A stretch of DNA of 64,000 bases from Candidatus Micrarchaeota archaeon (GTDB taxonomy: Archaea; Micrarchaeota; Micrarchaeia; Micrarchaeales; CABMGC01): positions 106,894-170,893 of the forward strand of contig JAJZOF010000020.1 in NCBI GenBank assembly GCA_021811535.1, given 5' to 3'. A program made the translations under genes and the position numbers. This document shows positions 9,522 through 64,000 of this stretch, piece by piece; position 1 is the first letter of the stretch; every line of letters starts with the position of its first letter. The notes below the pieces were generated by a model that was not told where the DNA came from, did no database searches, and worked only from the letters and a program-made list of their open reading frames with translations.

Positions 9522-11921
9522 TCAGTCGCATTTAGTATATCCGCAGGATTTGCAGATTCCGCAGCCTCCCTCGTTCACGTAAGTCTTCTCCCTGCATGAA
9601 GGGCATTCCATCGGTTTTATTACGTGGTCCTGATGCTTTGGTATCGAGAGCTGATGGCCGTCAAGCTTTATATCGCTGTTTTCTTCTGCAAGCGGCTTTG
9701 CCACCACCAGCTTGGACTGCGCTATCATCATCTCTATGGCCTTTGCTATTGCATCAGGCACGCTATAAACCTTTATGCCGCGATCCCATGATATTGAGCT
9801 GTTTGCCTTTATGCCTTTTATGCTCTCCACTACCTCGTTCACGTCTCCGCCGATCTGAAGGTATTTGCTTATGAGTCTGCCCAGTGCCTCGCAGTAGCTC
9901 TTCTCCTCGCTGCCTGCCTTGCCCATGTTTATGAATACCTCACGTATCTGGTCGCCGTCAAAGTTTGCTGTTACGTAAAGTGATCCGTTTGGTGTGCTTA
10001 TCTTCATGGTCTTTCCGGTGAGTATGTGGTCGCGTTTCCATTCTTCCTTTGCCTTCTGTTCCGGAGTTGCCTGTACTCCTTTCTCTTTCCGGTTCTGCTC
10101 TTCCTCTGTTATCAGTATACCTTCCCTTGAGCCTTCCCTGTATACGGTAATGCCCTTGCATCCTGCCTTCCATGCCTGCATGTATATCTCCCCTACCTGC
10201 TCCGCAGTGGCTTCGCGTGGAAGGTTTACGGTAGAAGATATTGCGCTGTCTATATGCTGCTGGATTACGCCCTGCAGCTTGACCCTGAACTGGGCGTTTA
10301 TCTTGTGCGCTGGGATGAAGAAGTCTGGCAGTGAAGCCTCTTCGGATACCTGCGCGGTCTTCATGTACTCAAGCACAAGAGGATGGTAGACTTTGAAGAA
10401 CTCCTGGCTCAGCGACTCCGACCTGCGCGTATAGCTAAATGCGAATATCGGCTCTATGCCGCTTGATGTGCCTGCTAAGACCGATACGCTGCCAGTAGGC
10501 GGAACGGTAAGTATCGCCACGTTCCTCAGTCCGTGTTTGGCTATGTTGCTCCTTATGTCTTCAGGAAGGGTCTTTATGAACGGCATTGAGAGATGCTTTG
10601 CAGGATCAAAGAGAGGGAATGATCCTTTTTCCTTTGCCACCTCTATGCTCTCATCGTAGGAGAAGAGCTTGATCCTGTTGAACAGGTCATCTACCAGTGC
10701 CAGCGCTCTTTCAGTATCATACTTTATCTTCAGCTTGACCAGCATATCGGCAAGGCCTGTTATTCCAAGCCCTATCCTTCTGCTGCTCCTCGCCGCAGCA
10801 GTCTGCTCTGATAGTGGATGCTTCTGCATGTTGTATTCTAGTACATCGTCAAGGAACCTTACTCCGTATCTTACCGCCTGCTCAAGCCCATTCCAGTCTA
10901 TCGAAGCCGAGTCACTGAATGGATTCTTGACGAATGCGGAGAGGTTGACATTCCCAAGGTCGCATGCGCCATATGGCTGCAGCGGCTGCTCCGAGCAGGG
11001 GTTGGTTGTGATGACTTCCATGCCGTTGTACTCGCTTGGCGAGTATCTCTTTACAGTATCCCAGAATATGAGCCCTGGCTCTGCCCAGTCCCTTGCCGAC
11101 TTTATGAGCTCATTCCAGAGGGTCTTTGCCATTATCTTGCGCTCTATCTTCCCCACAACGCTGTTCTCGAACCTGAGGGTAAATTCACTGTCATTCTCCA
11201 CTGCCCTCATGAATTCGTCGGTTATCTTTACGCTTATGTTTGCGTACCTCACATTGCTGAGGTCCTTCTTTACGTTTATGAAGGCCATGATGTCGGGATG
11301 GTCTACATTTATCGTTATCATAAGAGCTCCGCGCCTGCCGTTCTGCCCTATAGTATGGGTTGTCTCGCTGAATATGTTCATGAATGAGACCGAGCCTGTT
11401 GAGAATATCGCCGAATTGTTTACCGGGGCTTCCCTTGGCCTTAGAATGGATATGTCCGTCCCTACTCCTCCCCCGTAACTGTATGTCCTTGCGGCTTCCT
11501 TGCACCATTGGAATATCGATTCGATGGAATCTTCCTTTATCGGTATGACGTAACAGTTCAGGAGAGTCGTCTTCCTGCCCTGGCCTGCGCCGAAGAGTAT
11601 CCTGCCTCCTGGAAGGAACCTGAAGTCGTAGAGCAGCCACTTGAATTTTTCCTGCCACTCGGTCCTCTTCTCCTCGCTCGGCTCTGCGCTGGCTATCTCG
11701 CGCGCTACCCTGTCCCACATCTCGCTAGGCACTTTCTCCACAGTGAGCCCTGTTTTGTTCTTAAGTGCATATTTCTCGTAAAAGACGCGTGAGCGTATCT
11801 CATCCCCTCCGAAGAAATCGAGGGTCTCCTTTGGAAGCCCTATCCCTTTTCCCTTCTGCTGCTCCTCTATAAACTGTGTTGATTCCTCAGAAACCGCGGC
11901 CGCCTTGTCTTTTTCCACCAT
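9522..11921 (-). CDS. nrdJ: Class II (adenosylcobalamin-dependent) ribonucleotide reductase NrdJ
   Basis: About 800 aa. Motifs NPCSEQPL and TVPPTGS, plus a C-terminal Cys-rich ribbon CPSC...CGICKSCGY. ATG 11921 is preceded by GGTGGT; an alternative GTG is at 11966. Confidence 0.9.
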   Translation of the reverse strand: MVEKDKAAAVSEESTQFIEEQQKGKGIGLPKETLDFFGGDEIRSRVFYEKYALKNKTGLTVEKVPSEMWDRVAREIASAEPSEEKRTEWQEKFKWLLYDFRFLPGGRILFGAGQGRKTTLLNCYVIPIKEDSIESIFQWCKEAARTYSYGGGVGTDISILRPREAPVNNSAIFSTGSVSFMNIFSETTHTIGQNGRRGALMITINVDHPDIMAFINVKKDLSNVRYANISVKITDEFMRAVENDSEFTLRFENSVVGKIERKIMAKTLWNELIKSARDWAEPGLIFWDTVKRYSPSEYNGMEVITTNPCSEQPLQPYGACDLGNVNLSAFVKNPFSDSASIDWNGLEQAVRYGVRFLDDVLEYNMQKHPLSEQTAAARSSRRIGLGITGLADMLVKLKIKYDTERALALVDDLFNRIKLFSYDESIEVAKEKGSFPLFDPAKHLSMPFIKTLPEDIRSNIAKHGLRNVAILTVPPTGSVSVLAGTSSGIEPIFAFSYTRRSESLSQEFFKVYHPLVLEYMKTAQVSEEASLPDFFIPAHKINAQFRVKLQGVIQQHIDSAISSTVNLPREATAEQVGEIYMQAWKAGCKGITVYREGSREGILITEEEQNRKEKGVQATPEQKAKEEWKRDHILTGKTMKISTPNGSLYVTANFDGDQIREVFINMGKAGSEEKSYCEALGRLISKYLQIGGDVNEVVESIKGIKANSSISWDRGIKVYSVPDAIAKAIEMMIAQSKLVVAKPLAEENSDIKLDGHQLSIPKHQDHVIKPMECPSCREKTYVNEGGCGICKSCGYTKCD

Positions 11922-11931
11922 GATACCACCA

Positions 11932-11978
11932 ATACAATATGTTGTGCCTGTACCCTTCAAAGGCACAAAGAGTTGTAT
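11932..11978 (-). promoter_or_regulatory. Two tandem NrdR-box-like palindromes upstream of nrdJ
   Basis: Box 1 at 11932-11947 is atACAAtatgTTGTgc. Box 2 at 11963-11978 is gcACAAagagTTGTat. Both are ACAA-N4-TTGT and start 31 bp apart; TATA-like tttataat is at 11991-11998. Confidence 0.5.
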
Positions 11979-12072
11979 TTTTAGGCAATATTTATAATAC
12001 TATCAGTCCTGCCTTTTACTTTCCTTTGCATGACTTCACATGCACATTTAAACGCTTTGCGCAAGATGCGTC

Positions 12073-12768
12073 TCAGAAGAACTCGTTGATCTTGAGCTGC
12101 CTTATTGCCTGTAGGGTCTTCCACCTGTTGCGAATATACGAAGTGGCCTTCTGATTGTCCATGTTTGCACGTATTGCCGCTATTGTGACCTTGTCTGAAG
12201 GGTACCCGGATCCGAAATCTATGCCGAGCCTGTCTTTTATCTTCTCTATCTCACGGTCCCTTGATACCTTTGCTATTATGCTCGCGCTTGAGGCTACAGG
12301 ATACCTCGAATCGGCTTTGTGCTCTGCTATTACGGTTATGGATGGATTCTTTCCCCTTGGTGAGGGCACACCCTTTATCCTCATCGACTTCTTTGAAAAG
12401 ACGCTGATCCTTATCCCGAATTTATGCGGTATTACATCAGGGGAATCTAGGTATACACGTGCGACGTCCCCGCTAAGCGAATCTATTATTGAAGCGAACT
12501 TAAGTGCCTCAAGCTGGTTCAATGATATCTTTGCAGCCATGGACCTGTTGATCTCCTCGGCATCAATGCTTATGGTCTTTACCTCTTCCGCAAGAGAGTT
12601 TATCTCGTCGAATAGAAATTCCCGTTTCCTTCTTGTGAGGAGCTTGGAGTCCCTTACGCCTATCTCGGCGAGTTTCTTCTCCCGTGCCTTGCTTATGCAA
12701 ACAACACTGACTGTTAGCGGACCTAAGACTGCGCCTCTGCCTGCCTCATCGCCGCCGGCGATGATTAT
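12073..12768 (-). CDS. rnhB: Ribonuclease HII (start codon unresolved)
   Basis: The frame is open from 12777. IIIAGGDEAGRGAVLGP (catalytic motif) is encoded at 12768-12718, but the first ATG/GTG/TTG is at 12540. The 5' limit is set at ATA 12768. Confidence 0.8.
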   Translation of the reverse strand: MIIAGGDEAGRGAVLGPLTVSVVCISKAREKKLAEIGVRDSKLLTRRKREFLFDEINSLAEEVKTISIDAEEINRSMAAKISLNQLEALKFASIIDSLSGDVARVYLDSPDVIPHKFGIRISVFSKKSMRIKGVPSPRGKNPSITVIAEHKADSRYPVASSASIIAKVSRDREIEKIKDRLGIDFGSGYPSDKVTIAAIRANMDNQKATSYIRNRWKTLQAIRQLKINEFF

Positions 12769-12777
12769 GCAATCACC

Positions 12778-13032
12778 TTAGACTACTCCCTTTTTGTCAA
12801 CAACTATGAAATCGTTTACAGCCATTACGCTCTCGTAGGGCACCTGGAGCTTCCCTGATTTTACGTTGAGCTTGTTGACGAACTCGCTGTCTACGTTCGG
12901 CTCTATTATCAGCGCGCTGAGCTTGCCGCTGGACTCGTTGACTTCTGCGTCGACAAACTTGCCCAAGTCAAAGCCATCGCTCGTGACTACTTCCTTGCCT
13001 ACTAATTGTTCTGCTATTACATATTTTACCAT
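12778..13032 (-). CDS. PRC-barrel domain protein
   Basis: 84 aa. LVGKEVVTSDGFDLGKFVDAEVNESSGKLSALIIEP is typical of PRC-barrel proteins. Confidence 0.7.
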   Translation of the reverse strand: MVKYVIAEQLVGKEVVTSDGFDLGKFVDAEVNESSGKLSALIIEPNVDSEFVNKLNVKSGKLQVPYESVMAVNDFIVVDKKGVV

Positions 13033-13110
13033 ACAGACACCATCTACTCGTAAGATTATATTATAACTTAAATTTATATATTTATAGTCAAAATACCATT
13101 ATAGAAGGAT

Positions 13111-13395
13111 TTGATGGGAGACAACATCGGCACGCTTTTTTTCAAGGATAAGCAGGTTAGGCTTCTCCTGATGCTGAACGAAAAGAACAAGGAGTGGTAT
13201 ATATCCGACCTGGCAAAGCAGGCAAACGTGACGTATATACACACCAGCAAGTTCATAAGCAAATGCGAGGACTTCGGGATAGTGGCTGCCGAGAAGCATG
13301 GGAGACTGAAGAGAATCTATCTTACCGAGAAAGGCCGCTCTGTAGCCGCAGGCGTTGCTGATACGCTGAGCAAAGTAGGGATTGCGGCTTATTGA
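13111..13395 (+). CDS. Small winged-helix transcriptional regulator
   Basis: 94 aa. ISDLAKQANVTYIHTSKFISKCEDFGIV...RLKRIYLTEKG is an HTH-plus-wing pattern. Confidence 0.5.
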   Translation: MMGDNIGTLFFKDKQVRLLLMLNEKNKEWYISDLAKQANVTYIHTSKFISKCEDFGIVAAEKHGRLKRIYLTEKGRSVAAGVADTLSKVGIAAY

Positions 13396-33054: not shown

Positions 33055-33155
33055 TCCCGTTGGTGTGAGTCGAACACACAGCCTGTCGGTATCTACTGCC
33101 ATGTTACTGGAAGTGCAAACTACAGCCGACCGCTCTGCCATTGAGCTACAACGGG
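33055..33155 (-). tRNA. tRNA-Tyr (GUA) with a 29-nt intron 3' of position 37
   Basis: Acceptor CCCGTTG/CAACGGG (C1:G72) with discriminator A73. Anticodon stem GTCGG/CCGAC and loop CTGTAG|intron|A, with the intron at 33091-33119. T-arm GTGTG-TTCGACT-CACAC. Confidence 0.85.
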
Positions 33156-63260: not shown

Positions 63261-63952
63261 TTATGGGTGAGAAGGGCCCTGCGAAAGCAGGTTTTGTATA
63301 TGTTAGGGCAGCTGCCATTGAGGATCTGTGCAGGTATGTTTCCCGCTTCGACTTTACTTCGGATAACCTGTTCGCCTCAGAGCTTGAAGGCAAGAGGGTG
63401 GTAATGGCCATAGGCGAGGCTTTCGAGAACAAGGTAATATGCTATTATGTCCCTTATGAGAAGAAGGCAGAGCTCATTGAGTATATGGTTCCGCAGGTAC
63501 ATGGTGAGAAGGAGGCAGCAGTTGCAGTTGAGAGGATAGAAAGGCAGCCGGCGCATTATGTGAATATAATCGATGTAGGGCTTAGGGATATAATCAGGAA
63601 GAAATTCGGGAAGGGTGAGGTTGCGCTGCTGCGTGCTGCAGGACATGAAGACATAGTGCGTGCCTTGGTGAAGAGGGGTATGAGAGACGAATATATAACG
63701 CATATTTACTCCTTTGCATATAAGGGCTTCCGAGTTATAGGGGCATTCGACATTGTTGAGGAGCTGCAGAATGGGAGAAAGGCTTTTTATTATTCGGTTT
63801 CAACCAATAATACAGACGCTGCTTTCGCAAGATACAGCTATATAGATAATCGCGTTGACTTTTCAAAGACATTCGGCGAACATAATTATATGTATGTTAA
63901 GATAATCAACCTTGCAGAACCTTTCCCGTTCTTCGATAATGTGCCCGCTTAG
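63257..63952 (+). CDS. Hypothetical cytoplasmic protein
   Basis: 231-aa ORF that overlaps the upstream stop by 4 nt. I recognise no family. Its stop overlaps the tRNA-Asn 5' end by 10 nt. Confidence 0.45.
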   Translation: MIMGEKGPAKAGFVYVRAAAIEDLCRYVSRFDFTSDNLFASELEGKRVVMAIGEAFENKVICYYVPYEKKAELIEYMVPQVHGEKEAAVAVERIERQPAHYVNIIDVGLRDIIRKKFGKGEVALLRAAGHEDIVRALVKRGMRDEYITHIYSFAYKGFRVIGAFDIVEELQNGRKAFYYSVSTNNTDAAFARYSYIDNRVDFSKTFGEHNYMYVKIINLAEPFPFFDNVPA

Positions 63953-64000
63953 CTCAGTGGTAGAGCGCCTGGCTGTTAACCAGGAAGTCGCAGGTTCAAT
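63943..64000 (+). tRNA. tRNA-Asn (GUU), 3'-truncated by the window edge
   Basis: GCCCGCT-TA-GCTC-AGTGGTA-GAGC-G-CCTGG-CTGTTAA-CCAGG-AAGTC-GCAGG-TTCAAT... Confidence 0.8.

Follow-up and report, generated by a model that had tools for sequence, protein, structure and literature searches.

Near-cognate start codons that depart from AUG in the third position are already known in bacteria. The infC and pcnB genes of Escherichia coli begin with AUU (PMC4705826 for infC), and ebpA of Enterococcus faecalis has an ATT start (PMC4447247). In these genes the codon is led by a Shine-Dalgarno (SD) sequence and kept among relatives. The genes concerned are housekeeping or dosage-sensitive, the unusual codon lowers translation, and automated annotation places the start wrongly at a downstream ATG. 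For archaea the evidence for near-cognate starts has so far been thin. We describe here what appears to be a comparatively well-supported archaeal case, the rnhB gene encoding RNase HII in a stretch of 64,000 nucleotides (64 kb, hereafter the window) of contig JAJZOF010000020.1 from a Candidatus Micrarchaeota, a DPANN archaeon. This gene has no canonical start codon ahead of its catalytic residues and follows closely on a gene for a PRC-barrel protein. Like the bacterial genes it seems to be SD-led, it retains its near-cognate codon among its relatives, and it has been mis-annotated at a downstream ATG. The start codon is probably AUA.

The locus differs from the infC type in several respects. 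The host is an archaeon, in which the fidelity of initiation depends on aIF1 and aIF2 rather than on IF3, and the gene is rnhB. The identity of the AUH codon (where H is A, C or U; ATH in DNA) varies by lineage, toggling with AUG and in-frame GUG, and in contrast to infC no autoregulatory logic is evident. In Sulfolobus, aIF1 discriminates against AUU in vitro (PMC4705826), and in ribosome profiling of Haloferax about 30% of putative alternative initiation sites were near-cognate (PMC7261190). A rare ATT start with a well-placed ribosome binding site has been inferred for the Asgard tubulin AtubA of Kariarchaeaceae (PMC13394414). AtubA resembles rnhB in that the gene was annotated too short, homology or structure pointed to missing N-terminal residues, and an upstream ATT suitably spaced from a ribosome binding site restores them. 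It is, however, a single gene from a single metagenome-assembled genome (MAG) with no comparative test, whereas the case presented here comprises 15 loci from several clades, together with statistics on selection and on spacing. Our literature searches found no publication describing AUH starts in Micrarchaeota or in rnhB.

All features of the locus lie on the minus strand, and positions are those of the window. The upstream cistron (13032-12778) encodes an 84-amino-acid PRC-barrel protein (PF05239, E=5.5e-08) and terminates with TAA at 12780-12778. It has a start of its own, GGTG-N5-ATG in the sequence GGTGtctgtATG, and a TATA-like AT-rich stretch lies 5′ of it at ~13100-13045. Homologues of the PRC-barrel protein act in archaeal cell division (bioRxiv 10.1101/2023.03.28.534520). 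Continuing in the same frame beyond the TAA, the codons are GGT GAT TGC ATA ATC ATC GCC GGC GGC GAT GAG GCA GGC AGA GGC, and the frame then remains open until the TGA at 12075-12073. The ATA (12768-12766), our proposed start, lies 9 nt past the TAA and is the first in-frame near-cognate codon beyond it. It is six codons before the catalytic Asp, whose GAT codon begins at 12750 and which forms the catalytic Asp-Glu pair GAT GAG (12750-12745). Counted from the ATA, the full-length RNase HII coding sequence would have 231 codons plus the TGA (12768-12073). The ATA and the two ATC codons following it make up a run of three isoleucine AUH codons (12768-12760), each of which is a potential near-cognate start that would leave a functional N-terminus.

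Reading the frame directly, we found no ATG, GTG or TTG between the PRC TAA and the ATG at 12540-12538, which is 76 codons after the ATA. Initiation at this ATG would delete the catalytic Asp and Glu of the DEAGRG motif, which lies upstream of 12540, and would halve the fold. A preliminary description of this DNA had made the same point, and had reported an RNase HII gene lacking a canonical start and lying in frame behind the PRC ORF (open reading frame) with one TAA between them; every one of its statements about the sequence was verified.

Judged by homology, the window protein is an ordinary full-length archaeal RNase HII. It matches PF01351 with 144.7 bits (cutoff 25.8; E=4.4e-42) over profile positions 1-198 of 199, with position 1 corresponding to the Ala codon at 12759. 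The equivalog model TIGR00729 is matched with 192.6 bits (cutoff 123.3) over its whole length (1-207 of 207), from residue 3 of the ATA-started protein. The catalytic motif GGDEAGRG is intact (12756-12733). The alignment with the RNase HII of A. fulgidus (3P83) is full-length (E=4e-38); YLDSPD in the query pairs with YVDSPD, and AEHKAD is present in both. The archaeal type 2 RNases H (A. fulgidus 1I39 and 3P83, T. kodakarensis 1IO2) are alike as proteins, the DEAGRG N-terminus included, and the window gene differs from theirs in the start codon only.

Could the gene be defective? The preliminary description had offered a sequencing error or a recent inactivation as one of its explanations. On such a view the locus would be an assembly or sequencing error or a recent pseudogene, or would express only a 155-amino-acid C-terminal fragment from ATG 12540. 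Gene callers indeed give only fragments of 155 or 210 amino acids, and a change of ATG to ATA is a single transition. However, two independent MAGs have exactly the same junction as the window, taaGGTGATtgcATAatcatc / gtcTAAGGTGATTGCATAATCATC, namely L001 (JAJZKO010000002, with an RNase HII of 95% amino acid identity to that of the window) and L002 (DAHXMW010000008, 94%). The ATA is thus invariant in three independent assemblies, and the clade is represented on ~64 contigs. We calculated the ratio of nonsynonymous to synonymous substitution rates (dN/dS) by the method of Nei and Gojobori for the three pairwise comparisons of these genomes. For the whole RNase HII gene dN/dS = 0.046-0.052, with dS of 0.3-0.9. 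For codons 1-76, located 5′ of the first ATG, dN/dS = 0.03-0.08, with dS of 0.3-0.4, indicating that the start-less N-terminal third of the gene is translated and constrained. This strong purifying selection, together with the intact catalytic motif and the full-length alignment to solved archaeal structures, also stands against a defective gene. On these comparisons a sequencing error and a pseudogene are refuted for RNase HII, and we give almost no credence to a defective gene in any form.

The same three genomes reveal a 74-nt block without a single difference, extending from 9 nt before the TAA through codon 17 of RNase HII. The nucleotide invariance of the first 17 codons is significant by permutation (P=2e-5; 106 of the 231 codons are variable). 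In the ATG-started PRC gene, whose protein has dN=0 against L001 and L002, the first 15 codons are likewise invariant in the three genomes. The invariance at the 5′ end of RNase HII is what would be expected of a translation-initiation region.

In public databases the gene is represented by truncated proteins. The 90%-identity protein cluster of the clade has 11 variants on the ~64 contigs (NCBI, JGI, ENA and Logan), all of which have been called as 155- or 210-amino-acid fragments without the catalytic Asp and Glu (proteins P0121-P0130 among them). One of these, P0126, is identical to the 155-amino-acid ORF of the window that begins at ATG 12540 (12540-12073). Genetic code table 11 lists ATA, ATC and ATT as rare initiators, and sources based on Prodigal are unable to call such starts. 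Homology-guided calls under table 11 by the NCBI Prokaryotic Genome Annotation Pipeline have begun two relatives at the homologous position, one at ATC (MDE1860487.1, P0010; L173 601-1326) and one at ATT (MEM0200973.1, P0111; L174 601-1314), the initiating codon being shown as M in both; the window clade is still given as the 155- and 210-amino-acid fragments. It follows that some database entries that begin M-I-I-A-G-G hide further AUH starts.

We then compared the start regions of relatives, in a survey of 128 RNase HII loci with a recognizable DEAGRG motif. Within this survey only the window, L001, L002 and L006 had no canonical start in the interval that runs from the upstream in-frame stop to the catalytic Asp, and the more distant loci had canonical starts without exception (121 of 121). 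A metagenome scan, in which the patterns were exact peptides, contributed just one close relative, L081. Further start-less loci came from fetching the DNA for truncated RNase HII calls and a few others, and the start-less set comprises 15 loci. Counting back from the catalytic Asp, the codon at position -6 is ATA in the window clade (the window, L001 and L002), ATT in L006, L174 and L169, and ATC in L161, L170, L173, L162/L163, L164, L167, L165/L166, L168 and L172. In L172 the sole in-frame canonical codon is a TTG at -23, within the PRC gene. The ATH at -6 is the first in-frame near-cognate codon in 11 of the 15 loci, the window included.

The position of the ATA is also that of a start codon in relatives with canonical starts. 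At the DNA level, the codon that aligns with ATA 12768 is ATG in L003, L004 and L081. The preliminary description had treated an ATG at this position in relatives as an argument against an unusual start; it is present in distant relatives (59-63% identity), but the close relatives all have ATA. Among protein homologues we inspected the best 120 matches, all of Micrarchaeota type and 55-63% identical. About 24 of these begin M-I-I-[AG]-G-G-D-E, with the start at the position of ATA 12768, and about 65 begin [V/M]-x-x-I-I-I-A-G-G-D-E, with the start three codons further upstream; nine were called without the DEAGRG N-terminus. Starts at -5 and -4 also exist among homologues, as MIAGGDE (P0105) and MAGGDE (P0070 and P0102). 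In a neighbour-joining tree of the RNase HII loci, which carries no support values and gives the number of independent start-less origins only approximately, the start-less loci are spread over at least 4-6 clades, with relatives that start at ATG or GTG placed among them. The start-less state persists in lineages only ~55-60% identical.

What do the start-less loci have in common? In all 15 of them GGTG stands exactly 5 nt 5′ of the ATA, ATC or ATT at codon -6. In the window this is the core of a candidate SD sequence, GGTGAT (12777-12772), which is a 6-nt match to the archaeal extended SD sequence GGAGGUGAU; the natural start region of P. abyssi aEF1A reads GGAGGUGAUUUAAAUG (PMC6237735). A count of SD motifs followed by any codon is uninformative since intragenic occurrences dominate, and the 5′ ends of ORFs were analyzed instead. 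Near ORF 5′ ends in the window the commonest spacing from GGTG to the start codon is 5 nt, found in 10 of 35 candidate pairs, compared with a background of 4 matches at this spacing among 586 internal ATG, GTG or TTG codons. The genes at this peak include both the PRC gene and the downstream ribonucleotide reductase (GGTGgtatcATG). Thus ATA 12768 has just the position that start codons have in this genome. Moreover, in the loci with an out-of-frame GTG the spacing is N5 only, never N4 or N7, which is an argument for selection on the distance to the -6 codon as such.

Initiation of RNase HII at an AUH codon in some form is, in our judgment, highly probable. The particular reading that we favor is SD-directed initiation at the near-cognate AUA at 12768, with a probability of about 0.68. 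Near-cognate initiation at ATA or ATC was one of the four options in the preliminary description, and it has gained support from the ATG at the same site in three relatives, the modal GGTG-N5 spacing, and the 15 loci with GGTG-N5-ATH. It is favored by the fixed distance from SD core to AUH codon, which is common to all the start-less loci. On this reading the PRC-barrel gene and RNase HII would share one transcript, begun in the AT-rich promoter region that lies upstream of 13032. The ribosome would be positioned by GGUGAU (12777-12772), with the GGUG core 5 nt upstream of the AUA, and translation of RNase HII would begin at this codon, or less likely at either of the following AUC codons, which are fallback candidates. 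The initiator Met-tRNA would pair with AUA despite the third-position mismatch, and the product would have the N-terminus M-I-I-A-G-G-D-E-A-G-R-G (MIIAGGDEAGRG), as in the AUG-using relatives. We infer from the sequence both that AUA is the codon used and that methionine is incorporated. Poor initiation at AUA would limit the amount of RNase HII compared with that of the PRC-barrel protein encoded on the shared mRNA, and we infer that this low dose is likely to be the point of the design.

Four considerations weigh against SD-directed initiation at the AUA. First, aIF1 should disfavor AUH codons, and the yield could be very low. Second, a perfect 8-bp hairpin, UCAUCGCC-GGC-GGCGAUGA (12764-12746; -12 kcal/mol), follows the ATA at a distance of 1 nt and is expected to hinder accommodation by the 30S subunit. 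Third, an out-of-frame GTG lies 1 nt past the PRC stop, where it is well placed for reinitiation, and it would compete with the ATA or feed it. Fourth, GTG is in frame in about half of the relatives (GGTG-N6-ATH), and the motif could have originated as a start codon, not as an SD sequence. L005, L050 and L171 have the GGTG-N6-ATH arrangement, and their in-frame GTG is taken as the start by gene callers.

The hairpin is contained in the 74-nt block that is invariant among the three genomes. Outside the window clade it is much weaker or missing: values range from -0.7 to -7.9 kcal/mol in the other start-less loci and are about -2 kcal/mol in canonical ones. We therefore rejected a downstream hairpin as a shared defining element, as it is strong only in the window clade. 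There it could be a further damper of initiation or a by-product of codon choice.

Ribosomes might be delivered to the ATA by translation of the PRC gene rather than by the SD sequence. With such coupling, those terminating at the PRC TAA would reinitiate at the ATA, either directly or by a relay in which they restart at the GTG, read a 3-codon ORF, and restart again at the ATA that overlaps its stop. The mini-ORF in question, GTG ATT GCA TAA (12776-12765), is out of frame with RNase HII. It begins at the GTG of GGTGAT, with 1 nt between this GTG and the PRC stop, and its own stop forms ATAA together with the ATA, an overlap like that of classic gene pairs sharing 4 nt. Both gaps are short, TAA-G-GTG in the one case and 9 nt from TAA to ATA in the other, and termination-reinitiation in archaea has been documented for overlaps and very short distances (PMC10666635). 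The Haloferax genes that reinitiate in this way (Huber et al.) are likewise adjacent and unidirectional with a very short gap. In most start-less relatives a GTG is located 0-3 nt past the PRC stop, and in 9 of the 15 loci the stop codon of the GTG frame overlaps an ATA of the RNase HII frame (as ATAA or ATAG).

Yet any ATA with A or G after it contains an out-of-frame stop, and the overlap therefore says little in favor of coupling. Classic coupling of the Haloferax type involves overlaps of 4 or 1 nt and canonical starts, whereas here the gap is 9 nt, and relatives have gaps as long as 31 nt or lack the upstream gene. Most relatives have 8-13 nt between the stop and the ATH, while L168 has 18 nt and L172 has 31 nt; in Haloferax and E. 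coli, coupling is almost lost at a distance of ~20 nt (PMC10666635). Furthermore, L165 and L166 have an RNase HII gene with no PRC gene adjacent to it, and still keep GGTG-N5-ATC. The length of the mini-ORF is not conserved, being 5 codons in six loci, where it ends with ATAG on the ATA at -4, and 16-20 codons in six others. The relay is impossible in L162, L164, L167, L173, L006 and L174, where the GTG frame stays open for 16-20 codons and extends beyond the start region. We consider it rather unlikely that initiation at the AUA depends on coupling. Termination-reinitiation, which the preliminary description had listed as an option, may contribute locally across the 9-nt gap, but is not general given gaps of 8-31 nt and the absence of a PRC gene in L165; the mini-ORF relay is a possible local contributor only.

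The common frame of the two ORFs raises another possibility, put forward in the preliminary description, that programmed read-through of the PRC TAA yields a PRC-barrel/RNase HII fusion as the only active enzyme. The fusion would have 84+1+234 = 319 amino acids, rather than the ~318 given there, and the peptide across the junction would be GVV-X-GDCIIIAGGDEAGR. A shared frame with a single stop between the ORFs is found in the window, L001, L002, L161 and L168. A common frame is expected by chance in one case out of three, and it is not kept in the relatives. Relative to RNase HII the PRC stop is in frame 0 in the window, L161 and L168, in frame 1 in L006, L170, L172 and L174, and in frame 2 in L162, L164, L167, L169 and L173, i.e., all three frames are occupied. 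L170 has tandem stops, TAA TAA, and L165 and L166 have no PRC gene to read through. None of the best 120 homologues is a fusion of PRC and RNase HII domains, all of them matching PF01351 only, and what GGT GAT TGC represents is an SD-like motif kept at constant spacing rather than a conserved linker peptide. Of the stop codons, moreover, TAA is generally the least leaky. Read-through is contradicted by these observations and is most improbable, and the in-frame TAA between the two ORFs is, on the comparative evidence, coincidental.

The GTG within GGTGAT allows a further explanation. Ribosomes might start at GTG 12776 and then enter the RNase HII frame by programmed frameshifting, either -1 or +2. 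Gene callers begin about half of the relatives at this GTG, which is in frame there (giving VVF- or VSP-IIIAGGDE). In every start-less locus the GTG is shifted by just one nucleotide from the RNase HII frame, and some lineages have a run of five T residues (GGTGTTTTTATC). However, the spacers between GTG and ATH vary (ATTGC, ATCAA/ATCGA, TTCTC, TTTTT, TTCTT) and share no slippery heptamer. In the window the GTG frame reaches TAA after three codons with no slippery site, and the T5 run, which is too short for transcriptional slippage, is absent there. We see very little chance of a frameshift.

Initiation at the ATA on a leaderless internal transcript was also examined as a candidate, and was set aside as unlikely. 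Non-AUG codons are tolerated least in leaderless initiation, and no TATA-like element was seen 25-30 nt upstream (ttgttgacaaaaaggg), with no archaeal promoter model applied. As a separate observation, in L165 (1100-1180) and in L166 a TATA-like TTTAAT lies ~25 nt upstream of an out-of-frame ATG-GTG ORF of 6 codons that is possibly leaderless, and that ends with ATAG on the in-frame ATA codon of RNase HII at -4.

Is the unusual start a property of the gene or of the genome? When the 64-kb window was scanned for long ORFs that open with GGTG-N5/6-ATH and have no canonical start further upstream, 12768 was the only match. Ten other ORFs in the window have long start-less 5′ stretches, and in none of these does a Pfam domain begin before the first canonical start; RNase HII is the only one of the 11 suspect ORFs in which it does. 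Genome-wide relaxed start usage was thus rejected, the phenomenon being gene-specific within the window. Taken with the survey of relatives, this indicates that the start-less feature is specific to rnhB and to this clade of Micrarchaeota. The 64-kb window contains no initiator tRNA, aIF1 gene or 16S 3′ end. Its tRNAs are those for Ala, Asp, Tyr (with an intron) and a cut Asn, and an unusual initiator tRNA was looked for among them without success. The tRNA-Tyr (anticodon GUA; 33055-33155, minus strand) has an intron of ~32 nt and was found by Rfam but missed by ARAGORN; the tRNA-Asn (anticodon GUU; 63943-64000) is cut by the end of the window.

Some further observations concern neighboring genes and more distant archaea. 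The B12-dependent ribonucleotide reductase NrdJ downstream of rnhB (11919-11966, minus strand) is listed from GTG 11966. The ATG at 11921, which has typical SD spacing (GGTGgtatcATG), is more likely to be its start. The neighborhood at 9522-13395 consists of a divergent small gene of helix-turn-helix-like type, the PRC-barrel and RNase HII genes, and genes for dNTP supply, and is kept in L162, L164, L167 and L171. The dNTP-supply neighbor is the ribonucleotide reductase in the window, and an NrdR-like Zn-ribbon/ATP-cone gene in relatives. This conserved arrangement hints at an operon context related to replication or repair. In Heimdallarchaeia the loci L048, L051, L133 and L137 have as their sole canonical in-frame RNase HII start a GTG inside AAGGGTGAT, 11 codons before the Asp. 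Many ATA and ATT codons follow this GTG, and the same ambiguity between SD sequence and start codon is possible there.

The practical consequence of these results is a correction of annotation. Public databases list the sole RNase HII of the organism and its clade without the active site, and metabolic or repair reconstructions would wrongly score the gene as defective. The locus also illustrates how the strength of a start codon can set differential expression within a two-gene operon. Experimental knowledge of start selection in archaea consists of AUG, GUG and UUG together with a few in vitro experiments on aIF1. The rnhB locus and its 14 relatives constitute a natural allelic series, replicated across the phylogeny, of AUG, AUA, AUC, AUU and GUG at a fixed SD spacing in a single conserved gene, with which AUH initiation in archaea is testable.

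The comparisons also suggest a broader proposal, which we put forward only tentatively, that across the clade AUA, AUC or AUU is the stable physiological start of the only RNase HII, toggling with AUG and in-frame GUG over evolution. If this were true, the fidelity of start codon selection would be relaxed in these reduced archaea, or tunable through aIF1. The output of RNase HII could then report or respond to the stringency of initiation, like the AUU of bacterial infC, and the invariant hairpin that follows the AUA may be a further control element.

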